Assembly (NCBI GenBank): GCA_030390025.1
Contig: CM059432.1
Coordinates: 98,706,001 to 98,770,000, forward strand
Origin: Squalus acanthias
Taxonomy: Eukaryota
Reading direction: 5' to 3'
DNA: 64,000 nucleotides
Positions within the stretch are counted from its first letter, which is position 1; each line of letters starts with the position of its first letter. A program made the position numbers and the translations under genes. The notes under the pieces are model-generated. The model ran no database searches. It was given only the letters and a program-made list of their open reading frames with translations, and was not told the DNA's origin. Below are positions 3,088 to 64,000 of this stretch, piece by piece.

Positions 3088-4695
3088 TGTAGAATTCGCA
3101 AATTATCGCGATTTCAAAATAATGAGAAAGAGACATACAGTTTCGTAAAAACAGCTTTATTTCAGCAAAATGCTGTCATGTTTCAAAACGGACACAAGCA
3201 GCCTGTAAAATGGCCACCGCGCCTCGTGGCAGAAGATTCCAGATTTTTCAGTAGGCAGACAAGATGGCGTTTCAATAAACATTTCAGCATGATCGGACAG
3301 TACTCAGCATATTGATATAAGACAAGACGCGATCGTTTTGCATTCTTAACACCTAAGCAAGAAATATAAGTGCTGGAATCGGTTTTCCATACACAAACGG
3401 GGGCTATTGTACTGGGCAATCAAGGGCCCATCCAAAGACATTGATACGCAAATTCCCCGCGGCTCTACGATGAGAGACCCGTTCGCGGGTACTCACAGCA
3501 AGAATTCGGAGGCCCCCAAAAACACCTCCAGGGAGACTCCTAGCCGGTTCCACAATGGGAGAAATATTAACGGGTACTTAGACAGTTACAAGTATCACCG
3601 AAACCCATTAACGACAAGAACCACCCCATACAAGAAGTTTGAGCGCCAAAACATGACAAAAGATGAACATTAAGTTTGGGTGGGAGATAAGGAATTACAG
3701 TACTATAACTGTAGTGTCCAAAGGCCCATCGCTCTCTTATCCTTTTCATTCACTTGGAATCGTCTCTTGGCAATTCTCCCGGACGACTGTTACTCTCTCT
3801 TGTTCCGCTGATCCCTTTTGGGGTCGACCTCGTGGCGCGCTGCGAAATCGGATGCACCATCCCGAAGGACGGTAAACGGTGTCTGGACCCGAAGGCCCGA
3901 GGAGATGAGATGAGAAGAGAAGAAGAAGAATCCACGTGCCGCCGCGGTCAGTAAACCCCGACCGCGCCCGAAAATATATAGACCATTTTTGAACTCTATA
4001 GGTTACTGCACGAACTGACACAGGAAGACTTTTCTTCGAATTCTATCGAACTGGTGTCGATCCAGAAAGACTTTTCTTTGAGTTCTACAGCCGGGCCCGA
4101 GCACTGTCGAGTTCTTCATGACAACGGGGAGCCCAGCCTGCTTGCAGCAGCAGAGCGAGTAAACAAGTGGGGTACAGAGACCCCTGATCAACACGTGAAT
4201 AGTCAAGTGCTGTGGCGAAAACATCCGAGCATCGGTTTAGAATTCTCCGAGTTATCACGAGTGGTGAGCATGGTTCGCGATCCTACAGATCTAGATTAGG
4301 ACAGGTATTAATAGGGGAGGGTTTTGTTTTAAGGATAATTATAATGTGTGTCCCCTTTTACGATGTGTCGTGCGCTCCTCATTTCCCTAAACCTAGTTGC
4401 ATAAATGTATGTAAGCTTGTACTGTCATTAACCTGTGCTTATGACATGTATTTCATAATCTTGAACAATATGCAATAAAGATTTTCCATTTCGTACTATT
4501 CAACCGGGTCTACCTGACTTTTCTCTGCATTACTGCTCTCGCACCTAAGTCCAGTGTCAGAACCGTAAGGGCGAGTGGGTCGAACCACTCACAGGTGTCT
4601 AGTGCTACCAGGCTGGCTGGAGACCAGAACAGGCAACAAGGCCTAACCCCGCACTAGCACCCAGGCTAAGCACAGAGCCACGCGAACCCCTTACA
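3088..4695 (+). mobile_element. Solo LTR (1608 bp), same family as the 34500-43764 provirus
   Basis: TGTAGAATTCGC...CCCCTTACA with a 4-bp TSD AAGG (3084-3087 / 4696-4699). Shares blocks with the proviral LTR, including GCAATAAAGATTTTCCATTTCGTAC. Confidence 0.93.
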
Positions 4696-32326: not shown

Positions 32327-34499
32327 CAAGGACATAGACAGATTGGTAAAATGGGCAGACACGGCAGATGAAATTTAATGCAGAGAAGAATGAAGTGTTT
32401 CATTTTTGTAGGAAGAATGTGGAGAGGCAATGTAAACTAAATTTTACAAGTTTAAAATGGATGCAGGAATAGTGACACCCGGGGGTGTACGTACTCAAGT
32501 CTTTGAAGGTGGTAGGACAAGTTGAGAAGGCTGATAAAAAGGCATACGGGATCCTTGGCTTTATTAATAGAGACATAGGGCTCGATTTTGCCAGTGTGGA
32601 TGGGCTGGGGCGTGTCAGGTGGTATTCGTGTCAGGACCCCGACTCCGAAGTGAAGTGGGGAAAAAGTGCGATTTTCCCCTAATTGAGCAATTGATTTCCA
32701 GCTTGTGGGAACCCCTGGCCCAATGCGTCTTTTCATCCAGAAAGTCGCCTCCGATGACGTCATCAATGCTGCTGGATTTAAGGCCTGCAAGTAGCCTTGC
32801 TTCTTCTGGAGACTGCAAACTTTATGGCCATTGTAGTAAGCACTTCATTGATCGACTATGTCCACCATTAGGCCAAAGTGTGCTCCACGCTTCAATGAGC
32901 CCTCCCTCCAAGCTCTGGTGGAGGGAACAAGATCCAATAAGGAGGAACTCTTCCCTTCCTCAGGGAGAAAAAAGCCACCCCAGCAGACTAAAGCTGTGTG
33001 GCTGCAAGTGGCCCAGGAGGTCAACTCCATCTCGATGAGCCGCAGAACCTGGCTGCAATGCAGGAAGAGGTTTCATGACCTTCTCCGCACAGGAAAAGTG
33101 AGTATGACTTTCCCATCACCCTCAATCTGATCCCCATCGCCTCTACTCACCAGCACTCTGCTTTGCTAACCTCTTCCTCCACATCCCACTTGACACTTAC
33201 ATCCCTGCACCCTTACCCATTCCCTCTCTCTCTATGGTCACATTCACTTAATTATTTGACCATGCAGCCCTCACACTCCCTATCACTGTGATGCAATGAC
33301 AACAACAACTTGTAACACACAGGGATGGTCCTTTGTCTCCTTCTAAGCATCTATGCTATGCATTCTCTACACTCACTCCTTCATTCTCATTCAAACTCCA
33401 CTTGTGTCCCTCATTGCAGGAAAAGAGAGCCCACAATAAGAGGGAAAGAGCCATGACAGGAGGAGGGCCACCCTAAGCAGCCCAGCTCACCGCCTGGGAG
33501 GAGGCGGCCCTGGAAATTGCCGGGATCGAGGAGGATATCCAAGTGGGGGGCGGACAGACGGGCGCATCACAACAAGCTGGTGACAGAATAGTTTTTCATC
33601 TCTCTCACTGACATTGCATGAGTCACTGATAATGATTCTGATGCTCTAACAGATTGACTTATGGTCATCTGCACTATTCAATGTGCATGTAACCTTGACC
33701 TCACATCTCTAACTCTTTCCTTTACTCCCCCACAGGACCATCGAAAGCCCCCGTCCCCACTATCCAGGAGGAACAGCCTGAGCCTCCAGACTCCTCAGAG
33801 GAAGCTGCAACCTCTGAGGGCGCAGCGTCAGCAGAATTCAGCGCACCCAGCACCAGTGCAGACACTCACACCTCGGTGGGACCTTCGCGAGATAGAGTAG
33901 TGTTGGCACCTGGTGTATCACAGCTGACAAGTGAGCATCAGCAGATGGTGGAGACAGGGACAGCAGTGGAGAGTCCTGGTCGGAGGGCGCAGGACTCTGC
34001 TAGTTCGGCTCCGCTGCATGTCGACCCTGTGCCTCCGGGTCCATCCAGAAGGAGAGCGGAGCTGGAACTCCAGGAACAGGTGCAGGAGTCTCTGGCAGGT
34101 TTTGTCTCCAGGGTCGCTGCGAGTGTGGAGCGAATGTAAGAGTCCATCGCGAACATGAGCAGAGCCTTTGTGGAGGCATTGGCACATGAACGCCTCATGG
34201 CAGAAAGGATGGCAACCTCCGTGGAAAGGATGGCTGCCTCCGTGGTAAGGCTGGCTACCGTAGAGGAGAGGTTGGCTACGGCCATGGAGGAACTTAGACT
34301 CCAGGGTCTTGAAAACATGGTCATTGTTCAGAATAGACAGGCATCTCTTGAGGAGCGATGGTCAGCTATTGAGCATACAAACCTAACCTTCATGGAAGTC
34401 CTCTGGAGTAGGACTTCCAGTGCAGAAACGGGTTCTCATGGCCCCCCTGAAGTGCAGCAAGGTGCTGTCAAGCCACTTGCTAGCTCTGAAGTGGGGCTG

Positions 34500-36061
34500 T
34501 GTAAGGGATTCCTGACCCTGCGTGTCTCGTAGCCTGTGAGATTCACGCGGCTCTGTGCAGCCTGTATGTCAGTGCGGGTCTAGGCCTGGTTGCCTGTTCT
34601 GGTCTCCAGCCAGTCTGGGAACACTAGACACACCTGTGAGTGGTTCGAATCACTCTCCCTTACGGTTCTAGACACTGGACTTAGATGCGAGAGCAGTAAT
34701 GGAGATAAAACTCATGTAGACTTGGTTTGAATGGTACGAAATGGAAAATCTTTATTGCATGATACTTAAAATTATGAAATACATGTCATAAGCACAGATT
34801 AATGACAGTACAATCTTACAAACGGTTATATAGTCGATCTTAGGGAAACGAGGAACGAACGGCACAACGTAAATAGGGGCACACATTACAAATATCCTTA
34901 ATCTTTAAACCCTCCCCTATCAATATCTATCCTAAACTAGCTTCGTAGGATCTCGAGACTCATGCTCACCACTCGTGATAACTCGGAGAAATTCCGAATA
35001 GCTGATCGGATGTTTTTCACCGCAGCACCCACGTGTCGGTCAGGAGATCTCCTGGTCCCACTTGTTTACTTGCTTCTGCTGCTCCGGCTAGTAGGCTGGA
35101 CCGTCTGCTGTGGTGAAGACCTCGTGGCGATGGATATGGTCTTCTTCTCTCATCTCATCTCATCTCATCTCATCTCATCTCATCTCGGGCCTTTGGTTCC
35201 GCTGCCAGTTACCAACATAGGTCTTCGTTACGCGACACGAGGTAGATCCGAACGGATCAGAAAGTTCAACAGTCTTTTCAGAAGAGGCAACAGGCACGCA
35301 GAAGCCCAACTACGAGTACACAGGAGCAGCCACGAGGTTACGAATCGACCGGATAAAACACAGGAGCAATCGAGCGAACGCAGGAGCACGAACAAGAGCA
35401 CGAGGCCAGAGGCAAGAGACAAGAGAGCGAGTGGACGGTTTGGGGCCTGCAATTATAGTGCAAAAATCTTCCGTTTCCCGCCCAACTATAATGTCCATTC
35501 TTTTGTTTAGGGTTTGGCGCCCAAATGTCTTGTATGGGTGATCTCCGTCCTTAATGGGTTTCGGGGCTACTCATGAATGTTTGAGTACCTGTTAATATTT
35601 CTCCCATTGTTAAATCGGTCGGTGTTCTCCCTGGAGGGGTTTGGGGCTTCCAAGTGTCCTGTATAACTACCTGCTAACGGCTCTCTCATCGTAGAGTCGT
35701 TGGGAGTTTACATATTAATGTCCTTTGGATGGGCCCTTGATTACTCGGTACAATGGCTTTCCTTTGTACCTGGGAGACCGATTCCAGTATCTATGTTTAT
35801 ACTGTAAACCCATAATGTCTCGTGTATTATCTTCACTGTGCTGAATCGTTATCGATCTTGAAAAAAACGTTTAATGGAACGCCATCTTGTCTGCCTGTTG
35901 AAAAGTCTAGAATGTTCTGTCACGAGGTGCGGCGGCCATTTTACAGGCTGCTTGTGTCCAATTTAAACCTGTCAGCATTCTGCTGAAATAAAAGCTGTTT
36001 GAACGAAACTTTGTGTTTTCTCCTTATTAATCAAATCGCGATATATATTGCGAATTCTACA
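34500..36061 (-). repeat. 3' LTR (1562 bp)
   Basis: Minus strand TGTAGAATTC...CCCTTACA; AATAAA at 34751-34756; internal (GAGAT)n microsatellite. Confidence 0.96.
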
Positions 36062-36070
36062 GTCCCTCCT
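36062..36070 (-). promoter_or_regulatory. Short polypurine tract
   Basis: Minus strand AGGAGGGAC directly abuts the 3' LTR TGT. Confidence 0.7.
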
Positions 36071-36483
36071 GTTGATGCGAATAACTCCGCTTATCGTATC
36101 AAAAATCACAGTGGTGAGCAATCTTATCTCGATTTCACTCCGAATCCAGTAAATTAATCCCATAAATTTTAACTTAACTAGGGTCTCTGTGTCGTCCTTA
36201 TTTCCCAAGAAAATCACATTTTATATCACCGTAGGCATCATTTGCCCTTAAACTTACACCACTTGTTTTCCTTCCCGGCGTAACCAGGCCGATACCTCAC
36301 GCATCACCTGTATATTTGTCTTTTATTCAGGGAAAGGAAAAACAAAACCCGAAACCAAACAATCAACACCATCACCAAAATAAACAAATCCCAACTCTTA
36401 AACATGTCGAGTTTCCAACGTATTTACAATGAGTACAAACTTCCGCGGCGCACGCGGCGAGCGGGAGTGACGCCATTTTCCTA

Positions 36484-38835
36484 TTACACGGTGCTCTCAT
36501 CGTGCACGCGCACGTAACGTTCTCGCCACTCTCCCGTGTTTTCATGCTTGGTGAGGCGCTTGTCTCTTTTACAATGTATGAACAATAGGTACACTACAAT
36601 AAACACTTGACAGACGACTAAAATGTGGGAGGCTATTCTGATCCATGAAGGCACTTCAATATTGGTGAACAGATTCCACCACGGTGGAACCACTATGTCC
36701 AAAATGTCTGTTCCTATTTCGACAGTTTTCTGCTCTAATGTATAAAAATGTTTCTGTGATACCGCGACGGCTTTCAGAAGTTTGGTTAAATGCTCAGGGA
36801 GAGGGGGAATGAGGTATCCAAAATGCGCGACAAATCGCTGCAAGTCGGTGAAATTCTCTTTTACTGTGAGGTGAACAGTGGATGGTTCAGGGATTGGGAT
36901 AATTCGCTGTTGTGCTACTTGAACTTCAGCCCTGGGTTTAAAACAGAAACTGCTGTCACTCACCGGACACCGGCTACGGTTTCCATGCTGGTAGTGTTGC
37001 GCTGCAGTGGTAACACAATATGTTCCACCCCCGATGTATGCTACCTGCGGAGGCACATGATCTTGTGCCATTGCCTCCATGGTGCAATTCATGGACTTGG
37101 CGCCAGCCGTTCTGAACCCGCACTGTGGTGTTAAAAAGGCATTCAAGTGCTGGGGGCACAGTATTATGTGTGCTCCCCTGCCACGACAACCAGAGAGATC
37201 TGTACCTGTCATCGTTTGCTCCCAGCGGATGACGTAAGGTGGAACCGCTGCATAACGAATGTGGGCTCCCCCCTGAATGACACCAATGTTCTCTACCCGA
37301 TACACCGGGGCGGGCTTTGCTGTGTCGCCCAAAACCGGCATGCGTAATACTATTCCCATAACAGTATGGTTTGATCGTCCGCAGTCCACGGGGACTGGGT
37401 AAGCTTCTGAAGCTAGCCTGAGCTGGCACGGGCTTAATGCGTTCTGAAAAGGGTGGAGCGCCCGCAGGTGTTTGTTACTTATCCAGGACGGAACCAAACC
37501 TTGTTTTAAATCCTCCAAATTACTGCGGCCCTCGCCCAGTAACCACGCCCCGTAAAGCACGCACACCTCGTTCTGCGCAGCTTGATCGGATGCATTCCGA
37601 TCTTCCCTGATCAGGGCATTTACCGTACGCGCATGTTTCTCCAGCTCTGCTATAATTTCCTTTAAATGGAGAGTCATGGCTTGGTCCTCGTGTAGACCGG
37701 ATCCTACCACTTTATTCTCATCTGTTAGAATGTCTTTTAACTGTGTTTTTAAACCATTAATCTGGGTCTGCAGCTCCACACTGTCTAGAGCGTTGACCAC
37801 AGATGTCCCTGTGTTAAAAGCAGTGAACGCATCGTTCACCAAACCCCTTCTTTGCCTCCCTACTTGATCCAAAACTTCCTGCGGTGCGGTGTACAAACTT
37901 GTCTTATCAATTTCTGCAAAATCAAACTCGTAAAATTGTCTGAACATCTTGGTCAACAGGACCTGATACAACTGTTCCGTCTTTTTGGGGCACCACTCTG
38001 GTAACCGTACCTCAGTGAGATTTAAAATCACCGAGGCCACCGCGTAATGTACCCCCTGAAATAGTATCTGGTCTGTGGGGACCAGTACCAAACCGTTCCC
38101 GGGTCCCTTACTAGTTTTAGGGCACCCTTCTTCCTCAGCTAGAACCACCGGAATCGTGGGCGGGGCTTTGCGTGGGCGCGTAATGAGTTCAGTGGCATTT
38201 ACTGGGATCGGGGAGAATGGGGCTCCGCACCCCCTGGTGCTCGCATCCCACCTCATCCCCTGTCCGTTATCCTGCCACTGATTAATAAAAAATATGGAGA
38301 TGCCTTTGGGGCAAACGTACTTTGACCCCCACATACATACATAAATCCCCTCATCCGGTTCCCACCATTTGTCCCAACAGACTTTCACTTGTCCGTCTGT
38401 CCCCGTAATTGTCCGATGGGTATTATTACCCAGTCGTTCCCACTCGACCGAAGAGTTTCTCATAGTTTTGCTCAGCTTTCGCAGCCACCACCATCGGCTC
38501 AATGGGACATCCCCACTACAGGTCAAACAAATCCGTTTGCCGACGGTGACGCTGATCCTGGGTGCGATGATCCGTACTTTGGGGCACATTAAAGAAGTCT
38601 CTTTGTAGGCGAACCCCGATGTGCTGGAATACTCCGTTGAGTTCGTTCCCAGCCATCCTGGCCACCTTCCCTTGTGGAAATAGGTGCTGGTCCCCTCTGC
38701 CTTCCGTCTTCCGGTCCCATCCACCGCGATGGGGGCCGTGTCCCCGGAACATCCAAACACCACGACATCCTTGGTGTGGCCTCGATAGGCCAATCCACAT
38801 CCGATTGCCACGAGCAATACTAGAATTCATTCCAT
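36484..38835 (-). CDS. env: Envelope glycoprotein: signal peptide, Ig-like domain, furin site, class I fusion subunit, transmembrane helix (nonsense codon at codon 3)
   Basis: 777 open codons preceded in frame by ATG GAA TGA ATT CTA GTA. Contains DEGIYVC Ig motif, RQRR|GLVN cleavage/fusion peptide, heptad repeat, Cys-rich region, and TM SHILVVCQVFIVVYLLFIHC. Confidence 0.88.
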
Positions 38836-39124
38836 CCTTCCTTGGTTCCTGTGATCAGATAGAATGAGGTAGCCAGCCTCGCAAAAGTCTCTGGCTTTTG
38901 TGAAGGGTGAGCGGGTCCCCTGACCTCGCCTCACGTAAACTTCAACGTTTGCTGCATAGACTTCCTCTAAACCTAGCCTTAAAACTCCCATCATTTTATC
39001 GTTTTCTGTTAAAACACTACAAACTTAACCTTGAACTAATAAACTTAAAACTTAACCTTGAACTATAAACTTAAAACCTTAAACTAATAACTTTACAGTG
39101 CCGCCCGTTCTCAGGGCGGCCCCT

Positions 39125-40384
39125 TTAAATTCTGAGAAGGCTGCTGCGAGCTCTTCCCGACGGTGGGAGGGCACTGACCCTTCCCTCTGATCTGCCGCAG
39201 CCTGTTGCTGCGCTGACCCTTTCCTCTGATCTGCCGCAGCCTGTTGCTGCGCTGACCCTTTCCTCTGATCTGCCGCAGCCTGTTGCTGCGCTGACCCTTT
39301 CCTCTGATCTGCCGCAGCCTGTTACTGCTGCGATGTGGCCTGTCTCTACCCGGGTTATCTTAACCTGAAGTCTACGCCTTGGGGCAGTCTGGGGACATGA
39401 CCACATCCTCCTAGGCTGGGGTTCTCTACTTGACCTACGGGGAGTTGCTATGGGCGGGGGTTCCGTGACGGACGGACCGGGTTCCGAGACCTCCAACGGG
39501 ATGACCTGGGGTTCCATCACAGTCGCCGGCTCCGCCTCCGCTGACTCCGCCTCCCTAACCTCGGGGCTGGCAGTTCGTGGCTCCGCCCTGCTCGGCCCAG
39601 CAGGCGGCCCTTCACTCGTGATCTCTGCCTCCCCTGAGGACTGGACGTTCAAGGCGGGCGGCCACATCTCTGGGAGCCACATTGGTACTCTCTGTGCTCC
39701 TATAGCGGCTGGCCCTGCCTCCTCTAGCTCCTCCCTCCTGTCCTCGGGACCTGCAGCTTGTGTGTCCACCCTGTGTGGATCTCTACCTATCGGCCCCATT
39801 CCCCCCAGACCGTTCCTCAGGAACCACCCGTCATCATCACTATGCTCATCTGCACTATCCTCATCTGACCAGGGTACCCTGGGTTCTTCGTCATCTAACC
39901 CCCAACTCCAGAAAAACGCTGCATGATCGTCCGGGATGTCCCTTCCTCTGATGCAAGCTGCTATGCCTGCCTGTGTGCCTTGTGGTCCTACCTGGGGCTG
40001 TGCTTTCCCACTCGCAGGTCTGGCCCCTCCCTTAAGACAGGCCACCGCCCCTGCTTGTTTCTGTGAAATCTCACCTGCTGGAGGCTGCAGATTTCTATCC
40101 TGTTTTAAATACTCATACTCCCTGCTCCTGGCTACCCTGTAGGCTGTTTTTATCTCTCTAAGCTGCCCTTCTAGCCTGAGCACGTCTAACTTTCCCATTG
40201 ATCGGGCGTTCTCCTCCCGCAGGGCCTGCTCTCTAAGCTGCCCTTCCAGCCTATCTATTTTCCCTATTAAGCGGGCGTTCTCCTCCCGCAAGGCCTGCTC
40301 TTTTAACCTGGCCTCCTCACCGCAGACCCCCTCCTGTGCGTGTCTTTTAAAAGGACACAGGTAGGCAGGCTGCGTGGGCTCTAG
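39125..40384 (-). CDS. ORF2 of unknown function in the pol position, in frame with gag via a UGA-CUAG stop
   Basis: 419 open codons directly after the gag TGA: coiled-coil repeats, acidic WSDEDSADEHSDDDGWF patch, Pro/Glu-rich region, 13-aa repeats. No protease, RT or integrase motifs. Confidence 0.75.
   Translation of the reverse strand, partial: LEPTQPAYLCPFKRHAQEGVCGEEARLKEQALREENARLIGKIDRLEGQLREQALREENARSMGKLDVLRLEGQLREIKTAYRVARSREYEYLKQDRNLQPPAGEISQKQAGAVACLKGGARPASGKAQPQVGPQGTQAGIAACIRGRDIPDDHAAFFWSWGLDDEEPRVPWSDEDSADEHSDDDGWFLRNGLGGMGPIGRDPHRVDTQAAGPEDRREELEEAGPAAIGAQRVPMWLPEMWPPALNVQSSGEAEITSEGPPAGPSRAEPRTASPEVREAESAEAEPATVMEPQVIPLEVSEPGPSVTEPPPIATPRRSSREPQPRRMWSCPQTAPRRRLQVKITRVETGHIAAVTGCGRSEERVSAATGCGRSEERVSAATGCGRSEERVSAATGCGRSEGRVSALPPSGRARSSLLRI
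39174..39326 (-). repeat. 39-bp coding tandem repeat, ~4 copies (TGCGRSEERVSAA)
   Basis: Plus-strand unit CTGACCCTTTCCTCTGATCTGCCGCAGCCTGTTGCTGCG. Confidence 0.95.
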
Positions 40385-42196
40385 TCATGGGGCACTATTA
40401 GACGGTCCTGCGGCACCTACGGGGCCGGTTGCGACCGCCACCTGTCCACGCGCATTCAAAACCAGCTTGCGCATGGCTCCTAACACTGCTTCGAGGTCGT
40501 CGGGAGGGGTGGGTGCCTTGGCTTCCTTAGCCGGGACAGGCGCCTGGGTTCGGACCGCGGGATTTTTATCCTTGGAATCCTTCCAAGGGTTCCTGCAGTG
40601 CTTGCGCCAGTGCCCTGTCTTCCCACACCCGTAACAGGCATTACTTGCCTGTGGGGCGCGATTACCCTCCTGATGCCACTCTCTTTGAGCCGGGGCTGCG
40701 GGTCGTACCTCATGTACTCTTCCCTTAAAGGGACGTGTCGTCATACCCCTTATGTTACGGTAACCTAACGTGAGTCGATTCAAGACCGACTCTTCCGTAA
40801 GGTTGAGGTCATTGGGATCGAACCAGGCTTTTGCCTGCTCTCTAACGGCTGGTAAACTGTTGGCTATTATGCACCTAAGCCAATGAATTAGAGCGGCGCC
40901 TTCCACATCTTCGCGCTCGGGCGCACCTAGACAGCTGCGCTCATATACTGGCCACAGCCTGTCGGCAAAAACCTTCGGGGGTTCTCCCTCCATCTGCACT
41001 GTCTGTCCCACTCTAGCAAACGGACCTCCGTCGTTCGCCCCCACTACTTCTAGGACCTCATTTTTCAATTCCTCATAACTTTTGTTTCCCCTCTTGCTCT
41101 CGCCTGAGAGGCACTGAAGGACCGAGCTGTCTAACGAGAACAGCAGCATTTTTGCTGTCTCCCCATCATCGCAGCCGTTAATGGCTGCGGCTTGCTCAAC
41201 TTCCCTGAAATGTACGGAAGGGTCGTCTATCTCGGTCAGCTTCCGTACGTGATTTATCATAGCTCTCAGCTGATGTGAACTGTGAGGCAACACCAGCTGT
41301 CCGAGGAGATCCCCCGGTTCTTCCGCACCGTTTCTGCTCAGGCCCCTTTTAATACCCGTTACTGGATACAACGATCCCTTTTTTACCTCCTTTTCAATGG
41401 GCTCTTTTGTTTCTTCCGTTGCTTCCTCCCTAACCCAGGTTTCTGAATAGCTGGGTGGCGCGGAGGGCGCAGTGGCTACTACTTCTGCTGCTTTACTTGG
41501 TGGGGAATTTCTAAATCTCTCATTTACTAGCGGCTGGTGCGCCGACGGATTGATAAGGCACACCATGCCGTTCGCATTATTCACGGCCTTTTTGAGGCTC
41601 TCTATCTCCCTTTGGCAGGCGCTATGGTCGGCTCCCTGAAACTTATCCTCAAGGGCCAACTTATACGCCGACCTAACCCCCATTAAGCTCTCTTCTTGAG
41701 TTCTTATCTGGGCAGCTTGGCGGTTACATCTTTCCTTTAACCTACTCTCATTCAATTTTGCTTCAGTGACCTGGCACTCGAGATACTCTATCCTTGTTTT
41801 AAGGTAACTGGAGACTTCCTGGCTTTCCTGGTGTAACTCATTTAAATTCTTAATGAGCACCTCCCCTCCAGAAACCTTCTCCTCCATTTCTCCCTCTAAA
41901 TGGCTGACACGAGCTGTTAGCGCTGTAATGGTCTGGTTTGAAATCTGAACCTGCCTTTTGTAGCACATAAGCCAGACTGCTTTCTCAACTGCCTTTTTAT
42001 GTTCCTTACTATCAGTCCACCTTTCAGCTGCCTCTAGTGGGCTCTTATCCGCTAACAATTCACTTATCCACTTCTTAGTTAGATTAACCTTTCCAAACAC
42101 ATAATCCGCTATCTTTTCCTGCATAACATTTCGTACAGTCATTCCAAAATCTAACACACTACCCTCTCGCTGCCAGTGTCCTGCCGCGGTCGCCAT
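40385..42196 (-). CDS. gag: Gag polyprotein (603 aa)
   Basis: N-terminal coiled coil, PSAPPSY late domain, capsid MHR-like QMEGEPPKVFADRL, zinc knuckle CYGCGKTGHWRKHC (40595-40636). Confidence 0.93.
   Translation of the reverse strand: MATAAGHWQREGSVLDFGMTVRNVMQEKIADYVFGKVNLTKKWISELLADKSPLEAAERWTDSKEHKKAVEKAVWLMCYKRQVQISNQTITALTARVSHLEGEMEEKVSGGEVLIKNLNELHQESQEVSSYLKTRIEYLECQVTEAKLNESRLKERCNRQAAQIRTQEESLMGVRSAYKLALEDKFQGADHSACQREIESLKKAVNNANGMVCLINPSAHQPLVNERFRNSPPSKAAEVVATAPSAPPSYSETWVREEATEETKEPIEKEVKKGSLYPVTGIKRGLSRNGAEEPGDLLGQLVLPHSSHQLRAMINHVRKLTEIDDPSVHFREVEQAAAINGCDDGETAKMLLFSLDSSVLQCLSGESKRGNKSYEELKNEVLEVVGANDGGPFARVGQTVQMEGEPPKVFADRLWPVYERSCLGAPEREDVEGAALIHWLRCIIANSLPAVREQAKAWFDPNDLNLTEESVLNRLTLGYRNIRGMTTRPFKGRVHEVRPAAPAQREWHQEGNRAPQASNACYGCGKTGHWRKHCRNPWKDSKDKNPAVRTQAPVPAKEAKAPTPPDDLEAVLGAMRKLVLNARGQVAVATGPVGAAGPSNSAP
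42178..42195 (-). promoter_or_regulatory. Primer-binding site, tRNA-Arg(TCG)
   Basis: TGGCGACCGCGGCAGGAC lies 5 nt after the 5' LTR and is complementary to the vertebrate tRNA-Arg-TCG 3' end GTCCTGCCGCGGTCG-CCA as I recall it. Confidence 0.85.
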
Positions 42197-42200
42197 TTTC

Positions 42201-43764
42201 TGTAAGGGATTCCCCTGACCCTGCGTGTCTCGTAGCCTGTGAGATTCACGCGGCTCTGTGCAGCCTGTATGTCAGTGCGGGTCTAGGCCTGGTTGCCTGT
42301 TCTGGTCTCCAGCCAGTCTGGGAACACTAGACACACCTGTGAGTGGTTCGAATCACTCTCCCTTACGGTTCTAGACACTGGACTTAGATGCGAGAGCAGT
42401 AATGGAGATAAAACTCATGTAGACTTGGTTTGAATGGTACGAAATGGAAAATCTTTATTGCATGATACTTAAAATTATGAAATACATGTCATAAGCACAG
42501 ATTAATGACAGTACAATCTTACAAACGGTTATATAGTCGATCTTAGGGAAACGAGGAACGAACGGCACAACGTAAATAGGGGCACACATTACAAATATCC
42601 TTAATCTTTAAACCCTCCCCTATCAATATCTATCCTAAACTAGCTTCGTAGGATCTCGAGACTCATGCTCACCACTCGTGATAACTCGGAGAAATTCCGA
42701 ATAGCTGATCGGATGTTTTTCACCGCAGCACCCACGTGTCGGTCAGGAGATCTCCTGGTCCCACTTGTTTACTTGCTTCTGCTGCTCCGGCTAGTAGGCT
42801 GGACCGTCTGCTGTGGTGAAGACCTCGTGGCGATGGATATGGTCTTCTTCTCTCATCTCATCTCATCTCATCTCATCTCATCTCATCTCGGGCCTTTGGT
42901 TCCGCTGCCAGTTACCAACATAGGTCTTCGTTACGCGACACGAGGTAGATCCGAACGGATCAGAAAGTTCAACAGTCTTTTCAGAAGAGGCAACAGGCAC
43001 GCAGAAGCCCAACTACGAGTACACAGGAGCAGCCACGAGGTTACGAATCGACCGGATAAAACACAGGAGCAATCGAGCGAACGCAGGAGCACGAACAAGA
43101 GCACGAGGCCAGAGGCAAGAGACAAGAGAGCGAGTGGACGGTTTGGGGCCTGCAATTATAGTGCAAAAATCTTCCGTTTCCCGCCCAACTATAATGTCCA
43201 TTCTTTTGTTTAGGGTTTGGCGCCCAAATGTCTTGTATGGGTGATCTCCGTCCTTAATGGGTTTCGGGGCTACTCATGAATGTTTGAGTACCTGTTAATA
43301 TTTCTCCCATTGTTAAATCGGTCGGTGTTCTCCCTGGAGGGGTTTGGGGCTTCCAAGTGTCCTGTATAACTACCTGCTAACGGCTCTCTCATCGTAGAGT
43401 CGTTGGGAGTTTACATATTAATGTCCTTTGGATGGGCCCTTGATTACTCGGTACAATGGCTTTCCTTTGTACCTGGGAGACCGATTCCAGTATCTATGTT
43501 TATACTGTAAACCCATAATGTCTCGTGTATTATCTTCACTGTGCTGAATCGTTATCGATCTTGAAAAAAACGTTTAATGGAACGCCATCTTGTCTGCCTG
43601 TTGAAAAGTCTAGAATGTTCTGTCACGAGGTGCGGCGGCCATTTTACAGGCTGCTTGTGTCCAATTTAAACCTGTCAGCATTCTGCTGAAATAAAAGCTG
43701 TTTGAACGAAACTTTGTGTTTTCTCCTTATTAATCAAATCGCGATATATATTGCGAATTCTACA
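42201..43764 (-). repeat. 5' LTR (1564 bp)
   Basis: Matches the 3' LTR; the only difference I saw by eye is an extra CC in the C-run at 42212-42215. Confidence 0.96.
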
Positions 43765-46699
43765 GCTGAACCATGAGAGGGATGTTGGTGGCAGACAACA
43801 AGGAAGTGGGGGCTCCTCTCCAAGCGCTCACATGACCATGCCACTGCAAAGCCCTTGGTCAAGCCCCACCAGAGTCCTCACCCAACTGAGATGGGCGTCT
43901 TAGCCCCTGCACAGCCACAGGAGCAGCAAACTGTTGCCGAGCCCTCACAGGTTCGCAACCCCAGAGAATGGCTGCCAAAGGTGTCGAGACAGGACCAGCA
44001 AGAAAGTGAGCAAGGGGCCTCCACATCTGCTGAAGCCACAGGGGAAGCACCATGTAGGAGCACGCGTAAGAGGAAGATAAAGCACAAGTAGTCACAAGGG
44101 TAGTCACTTGGGTGTTGTGATGTATTGTTTTTTGACCAGCCATCCTTGTCATGGTATCATAAACAGATTTGATGGAAAACTGTTGAAGTTGTGGCCTGTG
44201 TCATTTGGCAAATGGGACTTCCACATTGAGGGCTTAGGGCGACTTGCAATTGTCAGTATGGTGGTCAGAGTAATAGGAATCCGCAGGTTCTTGTCCATTG
44301 TCGATGGTCTGGTAAGAAGGTGCGAGGCAAAAGTTGATTGTGCAGGCTAAGCAAATCTGACCAACATGAGTGCGTCCCTTGCATCCCGGCCAGCAATGTG
44401 GTCGCGCGCTGGCGCCTTCTGACCTGTGCAACTTCAGGTGGGTGAGCAGCAGCTTGGCACTCCTGTTGTTGCTGCGGCTGTTGGTGCTGCTGTTGCTCAT
44501 GGGTCTGCTGCTGCCACAGCTGGTCTTCGTCCGAATCTGATGTCCAGGAGGAAAGGAAATAAATGTTCGCTATGCTTCTGGTATATGCCTCAGTTGAGGA
44601 AGTGCTCAGTCAAGGTGGGGAGAGGGGTTTCCCAGCAGGTCACACTGGAGATGGGTGTCAGGCTCCAAACTTCCACAACAATGATTATGCCTGCTAAAAG
44701 CTCCCCAGACCTGAGACAACAAGGTTCTGCCACCTGCAAGTGATCATTGGTGAAAACTCCTTTTTAATGGTGGAGCTGCAGCTGTTAGTAAGCAATCCAC
44801 TTGTAAGGCCGTCAGGATTACCTGGCGTGTTCCAGAGGAGGCGTGAAGGATGGGGGAAATGTCTAAAAATCAGAAAGGCCTCTGAAAATGGGATTATAGA
44901 TGCAATTAAGTGGTTGTTAAGGGCCTTAAGGGCCTATCCCGCCTCTTGGAGGTGGGATGGAAATGGGGTCTGAAAACACGAATGTGGGAAAATTGCTCGG
45001 AGGCGGGATGAAGGCGGGATCAGGCCTGCCCGCCATTTTTTGTGATTTTGACAACTCACACGCCTCCAAACTCATCTCCTCGTGCCTGGGAAAATCGAGC
45101 CCATAGAGTACAAAAGCAAGGAAGTTATGCTCCTTTATAAAACACTGGTTAGGCCCCAACTAGTGTATTGTGGCCAATTCACAGTTTATGAAGGATGTCA
45201 AGGCCTTAGAGAGGGTGCAGAGGAGATTTACTAGAATGGTACCAGGGATGAAAGGCTTTAGTTACGTGGAGAAACTAGAGAAACTGGGGTTATTCTCCTT
45301 TGAACAGAGAAGGTTAAGGGGAGATTTGATAGAGGTGTTCAAAATCATGAAGGGTTTTGATAGAGTTAATAAGTAGAAACTGTTTCCAGTGGCAGAAGGG
45401 TTGGTAACCAGAGGACACAGATTTAAGGTAATTGGCAAAAGACCGAGAGGCGACATGAGGAAAAACAAATTTACACAGCGAGTTCTTATGATCTGGAATG
45501 CACTGCCTGAAAGGGTGGTGGAAGCAGGTTCAATAATAACTTTGAAAAAGGAATTGGATAAATACTTGAAGTGGAAAAGATTGCAGGTGTATGGGGAAAG
45601 AGCAGGGGAGTGCGACTAATTGGATAGCTCCATGAAAGAGCTGGCACAGACACGATGGGCCAAATGGCCTCCATCTGTGCTGTATCATTCTATGATTCTA
45701 TGAAATTCCCTCCAGCCTGTAGGGCCACCCAAGGCCTTGTTTTCTCCACATTTCACTACCATGCGAGAGACTCAGTAACCATAGTTACTTTTCCAGTAAA
45801 CATGGAATTTGCACATGTGCAGGAACAGTAATGTGGCCTGAAACTTAGCTTTGCATTCTTGCAGGCATGCTGCAGTGCTGACCTACAAAATGGTGTTGTT
45901 CAGTGGGACAGAGGGAAATGCTCCTCGTAATCATTCAATGCAGCATCAACTCAACTTCAGCAGCCACACCGTCACTTGTCTGCAGATTGACTCCTGCACC
46001 TATGGGCCCTTTTCCCTTCATCCTGAACTGCCACTTCTTAATCCGATACCCCTTCAGCCCTGGAAAAGGTTGCTGATGTGTCGAGGTGTCTTTTAATGCT
46101 CTCCAGAAGATTTCTAAATTTTTGTTGCCCTCCTTATAACACACCCTTAATCCCTTTAAATTTCAGTTACACACATTCTTTGTTTCTTACAAGTGGAGTC
46201 ATTCCTAGAACCATCAGAGTTTGCACATGGAATTGTGAATCATTATGCAATATCATTAGATATGAAAATTGCATGTTATTAGCACCTAAGGGTCCAATAT
46301 GGTGGGTAGCACATGCGCCCATCCTGCACTGGATGTACACCGCCCACCATATTGGATTGGACACCCCCAGATGTGTACAGGGCGCATGCCAGAAGTATTC
46401 AAAAAACATTATTATAATATTAAAATATGGGTCCTACGCTGGTTGTAGGACCTCTTTATGAAATTGGTCTGTCCCAGTGCCTGACTGGCCATATGATATA
46501 CTCACCCAACAACCCATAACTCATGGCACTAACAGGCAGCGAGGACCCTGCAGCAGCGCTACTTAAAGACCTCATCCACCCCTTACAGGTTATTTGCTGG
46601 TTTGTGCTGTAAACCTCTGGGGAACTTTTTGACTATTTTCTCTGTTTCATTATTGATGTATGAATTCTGGGAACAACTTGCTGGTGCTGGAATGCTTGT

Positions 46700-53725: not shown

Positions 53726-54784
53726 AATCCCGTCAATTTCCCTAACACCATTTCCCTGCAAATACTGATTTCTTTCAGTTCCTCCCTTTCATCAGACCGT
53801 ATGTTCTCCAACATCTCTGGGAGGTTATTTGTGTCCTCCTTTGTGAAGACAGAACCAAAATATGCATTTAATTGGTCTGCCATTTCTTTGTTCCCCATTA
53901 TAACTTACCCCGCTTCTAACTGCAAGGGACCTACACTTGATTTCACTAATCTTTTTCTCTTCACATATCTATAAAAGCTCTTACAGTCAGTTTTTATGTT
54001 CCCAGCAAGCTGACCTTCATATTCTATTTTCCCCTTCTTAATTAATCCCTTTGTCGTCCTTTGTTGAATCCTAAACTGCTCCCAATCCTCAGGGTTACCG
54101 CTTTTTCTGGCCAATTTATATGCCGTCTCCTTGGATCTTATGCTATCCCTAATTTCCCTTGTTAGCCACGGTTGAGTCACCCTTTTTGTTTTATTCTTAT
54201 GCCACACTGGGATAAACAAATTCTGTAGTTCATCCATGCAGTCTTTGAATGTTTGCCATTGCCTATCCACCATCAACTCCTTGAGTGACATTCCCCAATC
54301 AATCCTACCCAATTCGCGCCTCATACCATCATTTGGAGGTCTATATACCACTCCCACTAACGTTTTCTGCCCCTTGTTATTTCTCATTTCTACCCATACA
54401 GATTCTGCATCATCAGAGCTAATATCCTTCCTTTCAATTGTGTTAATCCCCTCTTTAACCATAATGCTACCCCACCTCCCTTTCTTTTTTGCCTATCTTT
54501 CCTAAATATTGAATAACCCTGGATGTTGAGTTCCCAGCCTTGGCCACCCTGGAGCCATGTTTCTGTAATCCCAATCAAATCGTATTAATTTACCTCTATT
54601 TGCGCAGCTAATTCATCCACCTTGTTCCGAATGCTCCTTGCATTAAGACACCCTTCAGGATGTGTTTTTAATGCTCTCAGACCTATATGAATTATTATTT
54701 ACTGTGACCATGTTTGATTTAAACCATTGAGTACTTTGCCTTCTACTTTTGTTTTTCTCCTTCCTGTCTTTAGCTTTTATCCTT

Positions 54785-56499
54785 TGTAAAGTTTCGCAAT
54801 TATCGCGATTCGAAATAACAAGATAGAAGCAGATTCGTTTGATCAGTTTATTTAAACGAAATGCTGTCATGATATAAAGGACACAGAAGCCTGTAAAATG
54901 GCCACCGAGCATCGTGGCAGAAGCTTCCAGAAGTACCGTGGGCAGACAAGATGGCGTTCGAATAAACATTTTCAATATAAGACGGGATCATACTCGATAA
55001 GCACTGATAAAGACAGGATGAAACCTGTTTGCATTTGTGACAATAGCAAAAGATATGAGTGCTGGAATCGTTTTCCATGCACAAGTAAGGACCATTGTAC
55101 TGGGCAATCGAAGGCCCATCCAGACACATCAATACACAAATACCCCCACGGCTCTACAATGAGAGAGCCATTCTCGGGTGATTAAACAAGTATTCGGGGG
55201 CCCCCAAAACCAGTCAGGGAGACGATTCATACGATCCTGGCTGGGCCAACAATGGGGAAAACATTAACGGGTAGTTGGCCAGTCTCAGGTGCTATCGAAA
55301 CCCGTTAAAGACAAGAATCACCCCATGCTGGGAGTTTTGAGCGCCAATATTTCACAAAGGTCAAACATTAAGATTTGGGCGGGAGATAACGGAACACAGC
55401 ACTCTAACTATAGACAACAAATGTCCATCGCTCTCTTATTCTCTTATCTCGCTGCTGACTGTTGAGGGTTTTATTCTCTTATTCGCTTGCCGCTTCATGA
55501 ACTTGCTTGACTGGTGAGCTTCTGTGCTTTTCCTGGACTTTGTTGACTCTTAGCCGTACTGGTCGGTTATTCGAATGTTGGGTGGAGCTCAAACGGAACG
55601 AGCCGCCTCAACGAGGGCAAGTGACCGAGTGCACCATCCCGAGGGTCGGTAAATGGTGTCCGGACCCGAAGGCCCGAAGAGACGAGACGAGACGAGAAGA
55701 AGAGGAGAAGAATCCACGTGCCGCCACGGTCAGTAAACCCCGACCGCGCCCAAAAATATAAGAAAGAACTTTTCATTGAAGTCTTCCGACAACCGGTGTT
55801 GGGGACAGGAAGACTCTTCTTCGAATTCTACCGACAACTGGTATCAGTACAGGAAGACTTTTCTTTGAATTCTACAGCCGGGCCCGAGTGCTGTCGAGTT
55901 CTTCATGACAGCGGGGAGCCCAGCCTGCTTGCCGCAGCAGCGAAGATAAACAAGTGGGGTACAGAGACCCCTCCAAACACGTGACAGTCAGGCGCTGCAG
56001 CGAAACGAGCCGAGTGCCTCACTTTAAAATTCTCCGAAGTATCACGAGTGGTGAGCATGTTTCCCGATCCTACAAATCTAGACGTAGTGTAGGTATTGAT
56101 AGGGGAGGGTGGTTTTAATAAGGATAAAGTATAATGTGTTCCCCTTTTTACGATGTGCCGTGCGTTCTTCATTACCATAGACCAAGCTTTATGAATGTAT
56201 GTATACTTGTACTCTCGTTAATTTGCGCCTATGACATGTACTTCATGATCTTGGATGCTATGCAATAAAGATTTCCATTTCGTACTATTCAACCAGGGTC
56301 TGTTTGGGTTTTTCTCTGCATTACTGCTCTCGCACCTAAGTCCAGTGTTAGAACCGTAAGGGCGAGTGGGTCGAACCACTCACAGGTGCTTACTGCAACA
56401 AGGCTGGCCGGAGACCAGAGCAAGCAATAGTATTAGGCAACGAAGGCCTAACCCCGCACCAGCACCGTCTGCGATACAAGCACGCCAAAACCCCTTACA
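54785..56499 (+). mobile_element. Solo LTR (1715 bp), third variant of the provirus LTR family
   Basis: TGTAAAGTTTCGC...CCCCTTACA with TSD CCTT (54781-54784 / 56500-56503), inserted between CR1 ORF1 and ORF2. Confidence 0.93.
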
Positions 56500-57476: not shown

Positions 57477-57737
57477 GACTTACCCTTTAATTAATTAATT
57501 CAAATTAAACTAATTGAATCCCACCAATTTCACTTCAATTAAATGATATACTCAAGGGCCCTTGCTTAACAGCAGTCCCCGCTACACCACAGAGACTCTA
57601 GAAACTATAAACCACAGAATTTAAGTATGGAAAGAAGGAGAAAGAGAGAAATACTCACCAACCAATCACTTACCTGCTTTTTGGTGATGTCACACTTCGA
57701 TTACTTTTTACTTCTTTACACTCACCGGTCCGTTGTA

Positions 57738-58442
57738 GCTCACCTTTGAAATCTCCCGAGGTTTGGCGCTCTCCAGCCGCTCTCGCTCACCTTTGAAATC
57801 TCCCGAGGTTTGGCGCTCTCCAGCCGCTCTCACTCACCTTTGAAATCTCCCGAGGTTTGGCGCTCTCCAGCCGCTCTCGCTCACCTTTGAAATCTCCCGA
57901 GGTTTGTCACTCTCCAGCCGCTCTCGCTCACCTTCGAAATCTCCCGAGGTTTGGCGCTCTCCAGCCGCTCTCGCTCACCTTTGAAATCTCCTGAGATTTG
58001 GCGCTCTCCAGCCGCTCTCGCTCACCTTTGAAATCTCCCGAGGTTTGTCACTCTCCAGCCGCTCTCACTCACCTTTGAAATCTCCTGAGATTTGGCGCTC
58101 TCCAGCCGCTCTCGCTCACCTTTGAAATCTCCCGAGGTTTGTCACTCTCCAGCTGCTCTCGCTCACCTTTGAAATCTCCCGAGGTTTGGCGCTCTCCAGC
58201 CGCTCTCGCTCACCTTTGAAATCTCCCGAGGTTTGGCGCTCTCCAGCCGCTCTCGCTCACCTTTGAAATCTCCCGAGGTTTGGAGCTCTCCAGCCGCTCT
58301 CACTCACCTTTGAAATCTCCCGAGGTTTGGCGCTCTCCAGCCGCTCTCGCTCACCTTTGAAATCTCCCGAGATTTGGCGCTCTCCAGCCGCTCTCGCTCA
58401 CCTTTGAAATCTCCCGAGGTTTGGCGCTCTCCAGCCACTCTC
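57738..58442. repeat. 47-bp tandem array, ~15 copies, in the CR1 5' region
   Basis: Unit GCTCACCTTTGAAATCTCCCGAGGTTTGGCGCTCTCCAGCCGCTCTC, head-to-tail with no spacers. Confidence 0.95.
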
Positions 58443-60391
58443 CGCTTTAACTAATTGAACTTAAATTAAATCAAATCAATCCCACCAATTATACTATAAT
58501 TAAATGATATAGGGCACTTGTTTACCAACTTTCCCCGCTACACCACAGAGACCCTAGAAACTTTAAACCACAAAATTTAAGTTTCAAAAAGGAGAAAAAG
58601 AGAAATACTCACCAACCAATCACTTACCTGTTTTCTGGTGACGTCACACTTTGATTATTTTTCACTTCTCTCTCTCCCGCTCTCGGGGCTCAGATTGGTC
58701 GCCTACCTGGTCGCTGCCGCCTTTTATGGCCACCGCCTCGCCGCTGTCGCTCCACACAGGTCCGCCGCCTCTGCATGACCTTTCACCTTCCTTATCTTTT
58801 CCCGCCTGTGGGGCAACATAGAGGCTCAGCACCACCACCTTTACTGTGGCGGTGATTTACAGGGGTAGCAAGTGGATGGAAATTCAGGAAAATCTCAGGG
58901 GGTGCTTAGCCATCCATCCTCTGCTTCATTTAAATGTGGGGCAGATCAGGAACACAGTGGGATCACGGGAGGAAAATTGTGGCGGACGTTTTACAAGGTG
59001 GAGACTTGGTAGAAGGCTTCATCAGCTTATTTTGCTTGTCAGCCTGCCTCTATACTGCCCAAAAATGGATAGTTTTTTCCAAGGAAAATCTAGGCCTATC
59101 TCTGAATTAGCACCTTGTTGGTAGCTGGGAGTGATTAGTTTGGTCAAGTTTAAGTTCAACCAGGAAGTTAGTGGCATTAGAGTCTTCAGCAAGAATCAGG
59201 ACTCCTAGTTACTATGAACATAAGAAGTCAGTGAGTCCCATTACAATATGATATAGCAACATGATCTTAATTCCTCACACACCAAACTTGTGACATGCTT
59301 AAATTGGGCAGTACATTGTACCTTTTTGCCACTCTTATCTTTTATACTTTGAGAATTATGTGCAGTGAAGCAAACAAGTATTGGTGGTAGTAAATTGTAA
59401 TTATTAGTTTGTATTCTGTGGACGAAACCACAAGCAGATCTTCCCTTTTAGTGTTCCCGATTTTAAAATAAAAAATAAAATCCCATGTTATGGTTTCAAA
59501 TCATTTGAAAAGAGGAAATGTAATCAAATAATAAACTAAAATGTAATTGAATTCAAGTAGTTAAAATGGTATGCTTCACTATAGGTAGTCATTAATAGAT
59601 TTTAACAATTCATGTGACATTTCTTTAAGTTTCGTTCCTTTTTCCTTGGAATAAATACTGGATAATAAAATCTTCTGTTGTAGATTCGGCGTTTTGATTT
59701 AATGTTAAAACTCGAGCCAAATTCACATGACAGTTATGTTCTATGCTACAATTAGGTTCATTTGAAACTCATTTTTCAAAACTAAGACAGGTAGAGGTCT
59801 GGTCCCACAAGGCTCTATGTTTATTCTACTGCTCGTTTTACTGTGTATTAATAACATCCCTAAAGATTACAAGTAGCAGTGTTCACATGTGCAGATAATA
59901 CTTCTGGGTGGTTTGGAGTCTGTCTCTGGAAATAAGACTTTTTTGGAAGCAGTGAGAAAAAAGGTAAGCTCAATTGTTTGCAAGCCTTTCAAGTAAAAGA
60001 TGTATTCTGTGTCTTTCTCACTAAGGAGTTGAAATCATGATATATTAGTAGTAAATATATTAATACATTCTAAAGTAATTCCTGCATCCATTGAAGAAAA
60101 AACAAGGAAAGGTTTCCCTCTTTGGCGCATATTGAAAAATTGTGCAACCCCACCTCACGATTTTCCACCCTACAGAGGATAATGCTTATATAATAGCCCG
60201 GTGAATAGTATTATAATGGGTTATTAGCTTTGTTAGAATAGTGAACGAAAGAATTTCAGGCAAATATGTTACTGCATTTGTTAAGGGTAATATTGCACAG
60301 TTAACCCAAAGGTACTTGCTTAAAATAATAAGAAATGAATGGGTCAGCCAATCTAATGGTTCAGTGGGTAACTGTCTGTTATAATAATACT

Positions 60392-62159: not shown

Positions 62160-64000
62160 AGACCCGCCACGAGACCACCGATCCCGCCCCCCACGATGCC
62201 TCTGATCAGCTTCCCAAGGCCGCCGACCCCTCCTCAAGGCCTCCGATATACCCCGCATGATACCTCCAATCCCCCCCACGAGGCCTCCAATCCCCCCCAC
62301 GAGGCCTCCAATCCCCCCCACGAGGCCTCCAATCCTCCCCACGAGGTCTCCAATCCCCCCCACGAGGCCTCCAATCCCCCCCACGAGGCCTCCAATCCCC
62401 CCCACGAGGCCTCCAATCCCCCCCACGAGGCCTCCAATCCTCCCCACGAGGTCTCCGATCTCCCCACGTGGTCTCCGATTCCCCCACGAGGTCTCCAATC
62501 CCCCCCGCATGATACCTCCAATCCCCGCCACGAGGTCTCCGATCCCCCCACGAGGTCTCCGATCCCCCCACGAGGTCTCCAATCCCCCCCACGAGGTCTC
62601 CGATACCCCCACGAGGTCTCCGATACCCCCACGTGGTCTCCGATCCCCCCCACGAGGTCTCCGATACCCCCACGTGCTCTCCGATCCCCCCCACGTGGTC
62701 TCCGATCCCCCCACGTGGTCTCCGATCCCCCCACGTGGTCTCCGATCCCCCCCACGAGGACTCCGATTCCCCCCACGAGGACTCCAAACCCCCCCACGAG
62801 GTCTCCGAACTCCCCCATGAGGTCTCCAATCACCTTCCAAGGCCTCCGACACCTGCTCGAGGGCTCTTATACCTCCACGAGGCCTCCAATCAATTTCTTG
62901 AGGCCTCCAATCCTCCCCCCGAGGCCTGCGATAACTGCCCACCCCCCGCTCGAGGCCTGCGATCGCCCCCATGAGGCCTCCGATCGCCTTCCCAGACTTC
63001 CCCCTCCAGCCCCGATCCATCCAGCCCCCCGATCATTACACACCCCGATCCATCCACCCGCCGATCCATCCACCCCCCGATCCATCCACCCCCCGATCCA
63101 TCCACCCCCCGATCCATCCACCCCCCGATCCATCCACCCCCCGATCCATCCACCCCCCGATCCATCTACCCCCGATCATTACACCCCCCGATCCATCCAC
63201 CCCCCGATCCATCCACCCCCTGATCCATCCACCCCCCGATCCATCCACCCCCCGATCCATCCACCCCCCGATCCATCCACCCCCCGATCCATCCACCCCC
63301 CGATCCATCCACCCCCCGATCCTTCCACCCCCCGATCCTTCCACCCCCCGATCCATCCACCCCCAATCCATCCAGCCCCAAATCCTCCCACCCCCGATCC
63401 ATCCACCCCCCGATCCATCCACCCCCCGATCCATCTACCCCCGATCATTACACCCCCCGATCCATCCACCCCCCGATCCATCCACCCCCTGATCCATCCA
63501 CCCCCCGATCCATCCACCCCCCGATCCATCCACCCCCCGATCATTACACCCCCCGATCCGCCCACTCCCCGATCCATCCACCCCCCGATCCGCCCACCCC
63601 CCGATCCATCCAGCCCCAAATCCATCCACCCCCCGATCCATCCACCCCACGATCTGCCCACCCCCGATCCATCCACCCCCCGATCCATCCACCCCCCGAT
63701 CCTTCCACCCCCCGATCCTTCCACCCCCCGATCATTACACCCCCCGATCCTTCCACCCCCCGATCATTACACCCCCCGATCCGCCCACCCCCCGATCCAT
63801 CCAGCCCCCGATCCGCCCACCCCCCGATCCATCCACCCCCGATCATTACACCCCCCGATCCATCCACCCCCGATCCATCCACCCCCCGATCCATCCACCC
63901 CACGATCTGCCCACCCCCCGATCCATCCACCCCCCGATCCTTCCACCCCCCGATCCTTCCACCCCCCGATCATTACACCCCCCGATCCTTCCACCCCCCG
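62160..64000. repeat. C-rich compound minisatellite (~21-bp unit to ~62990, then ~16-bp unit) within a Harbinger-like element starting ~61798
   Basis: Units TCCCCCCCACGAGGCCTCCAA and CCCCCCGATCCATCCA; runs off the right edge. Confidence 0.92.

Follow-up and report, generated by a model that had tools for sequence, protein, structure and literature searches.

In the 64,000 nt of Squalus acanthias DNA analysed here (the window, whose coordinates are used throughout), an LTR element on the minus strand carries between gag and env a frame, ORF2, which runs stop-to-stop over 419 codons (40384-39125 (-)). How is such a frame translated, from which pieces was it assembled, and is it kept for its protein, for its openness or not at all? 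A first-pass annotation of the locus took ORF2 to be a replacement of pol under selection for a protein, and suggested an assembly cofactor, a decoy interacting with helper Gag or an acidic regulator. Judged from the sequence, ORF2 is probably not a separate gene; it appears to be a tail added to Gag by leaky reading of the gag stop codon, which would yield a minor Gag-ORF2 fusion.

The provirus, its Gag and its Env

The LTR element occupies 9.27 kb of the minus strand (43764-34500) and contains gag, ORF2, a short AT-rich spacer and env in this order. Its features outside ORF2 are the following:

42201..43764 (-): 5′ LTR, 1564 nt, with TG...CA ends; 4-bp TSD GCTG at 43765-43768
42178..42195 (-): primer-binding-site position (TGG...), PBS-like, overlapping the first gag ATG at 42196
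40388..42196 (-): gag, 603 aa, with a coiled coil (68-215), a capsid-like helical domain (about 305-486) and one CCHC knuckle (520-535)
38992..39124 (-): AT-rich non-coding spacer, in which 1-2 nt indels are frequent among copies; internal control
36484..38835 (-): env, F-type class I fusion protein with an RQRR cleavage site
36062..36073 (-): polypurine tract
34500..36061 (-): 3′ LTR, 1562 nt; TSD GCTG at 34496-34499

The two LTRs differ by a single 2-nt indel, with zero substitutions. LTRs, PBS, polypurine tract and TSD are all intact, while no protease, RT or integrase motif was found in the element by a three-frame motif scan, and this is the composition of a non-autonomous LTR element. 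A pol-less LTR element that is still inserting must rely on the enzymes of a helper. The element is best read as a lokiretrovirus-like provirus that is young, lacks pol and depends on a helper. At least half of the sampled 31-mers of its internal region are present in 20 public runs from 9 studies under six organism labels, a spread that may reflect either close kinship or recent transfer between species; no related loci and no instance of the junction pattern described below were found in the metagenome and viral contigs searched. Assignment to the Troyka LTR elements was rejected, since these are defined by CG..CG termini and a 3-bp TSD (PMC12440569), not by the TG..CA termini and 4-bp TSD present here.

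The surroundings of the provirus may be recorded briefly. Two solo LTRs lie in the window, at 3087-4694 (flanked by AAGG) and at about 54784-56497 (flanked by CCTT), and both belong to related older families, about 70-80% identical to the provirus LTR. Each LTR of the provirus contains an antisense ORF of 182 codons (34962-35510 and 42665-43213, plus strand). Long tandem arrays with units of 47 nt, 21 nt and 16 nt occur at 57589-58593 and 62200-64000, and no tRNA genes were found within the 64-kb window.

The named relatives of Gag come from skate (50% identity), whale shark, catshark and horn shark, and distantly from Xenopus. In the AF2 model, Gag consists of a long N-terminal coiled coil and a capsid-like domain, and the comparison of this model with solved structures by Foldseek placed MLV capsid in the top rows (E 0.012, prob 1.0, with none at E<=0.001). 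According to the model and Foldseek, Gag joins a retroviral capsid fold to an N-terminal coiled coil, which is the combination that characterises lokiretrovirus Gag. No longer Gag fusions were found among the Gag relatives searched, an absence that carries little weight. The Gags of the relatives begin with the same MAT motif as the provirus gag, whose first ATG overlaps the PBS (42178-42196).

For Env, the language-model features (Atlas) reach 0.93 to the Fusion_gly and Baculo_F clusters, with 204/256 shared. Because the direct Pfam scan of Env did not match PF00523, the relation of Env to F proteins is supported at the level of features; at that level Env has the properties of a lokiretrovirus Env (relation to Mononegavirales F, RXXR site, fusion peptide and TM). 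By sequence, Env had no match below E 1 among solved structures. The env of the present copy has an in-frame stop at its third codon, within the signal peptide (38827-38835), a site that does not figure among the 40 listed of 344 variants. In its N-terminal part (38340-38580 (-), residues about 85-165 of the 780-aa frame) there are weak hints of an Ig domain (Pfam Ig_3, E 0.58; JAM, E 1.3). Upstream of env, 38836-38991 (-) holds an ATG-started frame of 52 codons that leads, in phase, into the env ATG, which is directly preceded by an AG acceptor-like site; a 1-nt insertion in part of run X11 speaks against a conserved leader at 38836-38991.

The gag-ORF2 junction

ORF2 opens with the codon that follows the gag stop; it shares the frame of gag and stands behind TGA-CTAG:

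40381..40387 (-): gag stop TGA, then CTAG; putative readthrough signal and apparently inherited gag-pol junction

On base composition, CTAG would follow the stop by chance with a probability of 0.004. A UGA-CUA(G) context followed by an open downstream frame is the arrangement of type II programmed stop-codon readthrough; a hairpin 3′ of the stop is weakly supported (z -2.4 and -1.2). According to the accessible parts of two sources (PMC4132726, PMC13517186), UGA-CUAG supports readthrough when tested in reporters and has been conserved among vertebrates, the heptamer of the provirus being that of AQP4, OPRK1, OPRL1 and MAPK10; UGA-CUA(G) readthrough also occurs in alphaviruses, and gag-pro readthrough in gamma- and epsilonretroviruses obeys the same Gag-Pol logic. 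The retroviral readthrough contexts given in the accessible part of PMC13517186 are UAG-GGA/GGC, UGA-AGA, UGA-CGA and UGA-AGU; UGA-CUA is not among them there, and the word "loki" is absent. As for a start of its own, ORF2 has no ATG before codon 63, whose context is weak (T at -3), and no polypyrimidine-AG splice acceptor was found between 40100 and 40700. The free-standing ORF2 protein of the first-pass annotation thus finds no support, for ORF2 has no usable start and stands in a readthrough context instead.

The lokiretroviruses offer a comparison for this junction. In the accessible part of the supplement to PMC7947760, TGA-CTA stands at the gag stop in all four consensuses annotated with a plain gag gene: Ofa, Pyo and Sau have CTAG, and by eye the frame is open into the annotated pol; Loki-Bsp has CTAA after the gag TGA, and its annotated pol is in another frame. 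In Loki-Cne, TGA-CTAG is found in frame upstream of pol, and in ten consensuses gag and pol are fused with no stop; this count covers the plain-gag, fused and Cne consensuses, with the three smc-gag ones left out and the frames judged by eye. Where gag is separate, a conserved V-Y-x-V-x-W peptide follows TGA-CTA(G), before the annotated pol start. It is probable, from these sequences, that TGA-CTA(G) in lokiretroviruses with separate gag is an undescribed gag-pol readthrough signal. The terms "readthrough" and "stop codon" are absent from the accessible main text of the lokiretrovirus paper (PMC7947760), and none of the accessible main texts searched mentions a UGA-CUA(G) at the gag-pol junction of lokiretroviruses, though the signal may be on record in subscription journals or Repbase entries. 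The junction of the provirus matches the TGA-CTA context of lokiretroviruses, a context observed here and not a published criterion.

Copies in other runs bear on the origin of the junction. In run X7, a 252-nt contig spans the gag stop into ORF2, and a contig, which comes from another organism, follows the window as far as ORF2 codon 11, then departs from it and stays stop-free in frame, for 30 letters only; by eye this continuation looks like the run-up to a protease, and ORF2 codons 1-11 are probably a stub of pol. Since ORF2 shares the frame of gag, lies behind the TGA-CTAG signal, has the junction context of lokiretroviruses and is left by the run X7 contig after codon 11, it would be read as Pol was, and a readthrough anatomy of gag-ORF2 appears likely.

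Composition, origin and variation of ORF2

ORF2 may be divided into the following parts:

40352..40384 (-): codons 1-11, stub common to the run X7 contig that continues into another, protease-like frame; probable pol start
40118..40318 (-): codons 23-89, tandemly doubled Gag N-terminal coiled-coil piece; the sole confidently folded part
39944..40057 (-): codons 110-147, an old duplication offset by 84 nt (QAGAVAC / QAGIAAC), with a pair of short helices of low confidence
39821..39919 (-): codons 156-188, acidic/aromatic patch, 34% D+E, 7 aromatics in 156-190; predicted disordered
39335..39814 (-): codons 191-350, Pro/Glu-rich, then basic; predicted disordered; near-neutral variants
39173..39328 (-): four 39-nt repeats (13 aa); a form two units shorter in runs X7 and X11
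39125..39127 (-): ORF2 stop codon

Over the ORF2 span there are 0 stops in the ORF2 frame, against 23 and 25 in the two remaining sense frames, and in 5000 dinucleotide shuffles of the 1059 nt outside its repeats no sense frame was ever open. What had been seen of its make-up holds: the doubled unit (EQALREENAR...RLEGQLRE) is present, and so are the acidic/aromatic patch, the Pro/Glu stretch, the basic segment and the four 13-aa Cys repeats; the frame is intact through the duplications over 419 codons, and two more in-frame internal duplications (offsets 84 and 183 nt) can be added. AlphaFold without alignment gave confident helices only at 20-59 and 65-97, with pLDDT <50 for 300 of the 419 residues. 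No homologue of the whole ORF2 was found among 8000 candidates at E<=1; the best Pfam match (E 0.026) was to a coiled-coil family and below the cut-off, and the best Atlas value (0.81) was to an unnamed entry. The proposal of an acidic regulator found no support.

The N-terminal coil is derived from Gag, as the annotation had supposed: codons 23-89 score 18.3 bits against a profile of the relatives' Gag N-terminal coils, a value reached by 0 of 1995 local shuffles (maximum 9.3) and 0 of 1999 heptad-preserving shuffles (maximum 11.1). One coil unit and its tail align ungapped to Gag residues 145-181. In this register EARLKE lies over Gag EAKLNE (residue 145) and not over the ESRLKE that it had been said to echo. 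Identity over the 37 residues is 18 with the whale-shark relative, 15 with each of two unnamed relatives and 13 with the provirus's own Gag, and a recent DNA copy of the own gag was rejected (51 of 111 nt identical, no blastn match). These values mean that the coil is not a fresh copy of the adjacent gag; on sequence comparison it is an old Gag copy or one from a sister family. In the profile/shuffle comparison, a resemblance of the downstream codons 100-150 to what follows the coil in Gag was unsupported. In runs X7 and X11, loose ends join ORF2 near codon 125 from other upstream sequence.

ORF2 is covered throughout by contigs in 4 of 4 runs, under four organism labels. Three length variants are well supported and all are in frame: a 21-nt deletion in codons 191-350 (runs X11 and X12), a 78-nt shorter form with two repeats fewer (runs X7 and X11), and a net 75-nt shorter form with a single coil unit (run X3). 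Frame-breaking indels account for 10 of 11 listed in the spacer/env leader versus 0 of 3 well-supported ones in ORF2 (Fisher p 0.011), a value that is optimistic because a single event may have been placed in several ways among the spacer rows, 12 of the 26 indels are listed and five low-depth joints in ORF2 were left out. Three of these five joints, all in run X3 (943, 647 and 887 nt), have a short side of 22 letters and lengths not divisible by three, and were judged too unreliable to count; the other two touch ORF2. Copies diverged by 8-17% over the ORF2 pieces present also exist, and by eye none of the seven diverged loose ends, each 24-30 nt long, contains a stop (chance about 0.05-0.1).

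Substitutions give a divided answer. Among the 40 listed of 344, ORF2 has 4 silent, 8 replacement and 0 stop changes, and gag has 12, 10 and 0; against a neutral silent share of 0.29, the silent excess has p 0.014 for gag and p 0.51 for ORF2, the difference between them (p 0.30) not being significant with 40 variants listed of 344. Within the coil, 2 of the 2 variants listed are replacements. When the two coil copies are compared with each other, pS is 0.31 and pN 0.06 over 23 codons, and pS 0.40 and pN 0.12 over 27 codons, that is, pN/pS is about 0.2-0.3, with boundaries that were picked on similarity, which lowers pN. The silent excess of the coil has p about 0.01 by sites (Fisher) and 0.04-0.05 versus a transition-weighted expectation. 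The 183-nt-offset duplication in the tail (pS 0.35, pN 0.28) is neutral-like. A dN/dS near 1 is accordingly seen in the ORF2 tail and not in the coil, in a small and biased sample. Selection for a protein can be upheld in part: the open frame and the Gag-derived coil, with fewer replacement than silent changes, speak for it, while the whole protein, with 4 silent and 8 replacement changes, does not. The picture suggested by the sequences is that of an open frame with a constrained coil, in which tail and repeats would be drifting.

Possible roles of ORF2 and related systems

If the junction works as its sequence suggests, a few percent of ribosomes would pass the gag UGA-CUAG and make a Gag-ORF2 of about 1020 residues, so that ORF2 would occupy the pol slot and be translated in the manner of Pol. 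The extension would give Gag another coil of Gag origin, in doubled form, and behind it a long tail predicted to be disordered, of which the part after about codon 125 may be a left-over pol tail. Made on the element's own RNA at a low, Gag-Pol-like dose, Gag-ORF2 would enter particles via Gag, and the extra coil would bind the coils of Gag or of helper Gag-Pol; co-assembly with Gag and helper Gag-Pol would favour the packaging and copying of that RNA in cis. Selection would then act on the open frame and the coil, leaving tail and repeats to drift. This reading, a readthrough anatomy combined with a cis-packaging function like that of the mouse IAP 1-delta-1 fusion, is given a probability of about 0.5. 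Among the roles first suggested for ORF2, assembly together with helper Gag is the best guess. A more far-reaching version is held only tentatively: a satellite provirus that kept the leaky stop and swapped its enzymes for a doubled coil from the Gag of a sister family, so that a few Gag-ORF2 molecules in each particle would serve as a cis adaptor to a helper with a differing Gag, with an undescribed UGA-CUA(G) readthrough common to lokiretroviruses of bony and cartilaginous fishes.

The drift of the tail leads to the strongest rival, in which the protein is inert and the role of ORF2 lies in the RNA: readthrough into a long open frame would shield the genomic RNA from nonsense-mediated decay. 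Some 5.9 kb separate the gag stop from the 3′ end, any open sequence would serve, and according to the accessible part of PMC5360307 the suppression of nonsense-mediated decay by readthrough scales with the length of the downstream ORF. A frame that is kept while residues drift, as in the 183-nt-offset duplication, and repeats that extend the open frame agree with such a role. However, the silent excess between the coil copies would remain unexplained, and more than 4 kb of untranslated RNA is left past the ORF2 stop; the RNA-level role is considered rather unlikely.

Less likely again is that ORF2 is a neutral leftover, its frame being open as assembled from coding pieces (pol stub, gag piece, pol tail) in a young lineage under no current selection. 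LTRs without substitution and the neutral look of the listed ORF2 variants would fit. Yet the junctions and duplications all happen in frame, and so do the polymorphic length changes of ORF2, unlike the indels of the spacer; in addition, diverged copies with stop-free loose ends exist, and pN/pS of the coil is below 1. An independent accessory protein (a regulator, or a dominant decoy versus helper Gag), translated from an ATG of its own or from a spliced message, is improbable: the significant open frame, the ATG at codon 63 and the acidic/aromatic and basic patches invite the idea, but this ATG is weak and would drop the first coil unit, no splice acceptor lies in 40100-40700, 0 of 10 listed joints (contigs only) are of splice type into ORF2, and the readthrough signal accounts for translation without an own start or splicing.

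The Gag-ORF2 fusion favoured here has its nearest parallel in the mouse IAP 1-delta-1 element, a highly successful deletion derivative whose leftover gag-pol fusion protein has been reported, in the accessible part of PMC6466679, to act in cis. Both elements are non-autonomous and have lost enzymes, and the putative Gag-ORF2 would be an in-frame fusion like that of IAP 1-delta-1; deletion derivatives that depend on a helper and retain an in-frame leftover are already known as a kind. IAP 1-delta-1, however, has a constitutive fusion with part of gag and pol gone and no env (PMC6466679, accessible part), whereas the provirus has a whole gag, a stop with a readthrough signal, a retained env and an inserted extra doubled Gag coil; the literature searched contained no element of this form, with intact gag, readthrough signal, env and a doubled Gag coil as insert.

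The lokiretroviruses of Wang and Han (PMC7947760, accessible part) share with the provirus the coiled coil ("smc") before capsid, the F-type Env with RXXR and the TGA-CTA junction, and the distant Gag matches in Xenopus are a further point in common. The layout of the provirus is theirs minus pol, the likeness resting here on gag, env and junction, RT being absent. Their Env differs from that of the provirus, which has a long extra N-terminal part, and the accessible text describes no ORF2-like gene. The identification of ORF2 with the lokiretrovirus smc gene was rejected because smc is annotated as smc-gag(-pol), upstream of gag, while ORF2 lies downstream. Other relatives are Bik-1 and Bik-2 of zebrafish BHIKHARI (bioRxiv 10.1101/2024.03.25.586437), which in the accessible text are, like the provirus, non-autonomous loki relatives with a coiled-coil and capsid Gag; Bik-2 has gag only, with neither pol nor env, and "readthrough" does not occur in that text.

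If the rivals hold, the provirus is an ordinary deletion derivative. If the Gag-ORF2 reading is true, a dose control by readthrough that was built for Pol would now meter a new, Gag-derived extension in a defective retroelement. The large family with its variable ORF2 would then allow selection on the protein to be separated from selection on the open frame, that is, a packaging aid from RNA stability. For the lokiretroviruses, the findings point to gag-pol readthrough at UGA-CUA(G), and also to the presence of loki-like elements among cartilaginous fishes, a group without finds in the original screen (0 of 3 genomes of Chondrichthyes in the accessible part of PMC7947760).
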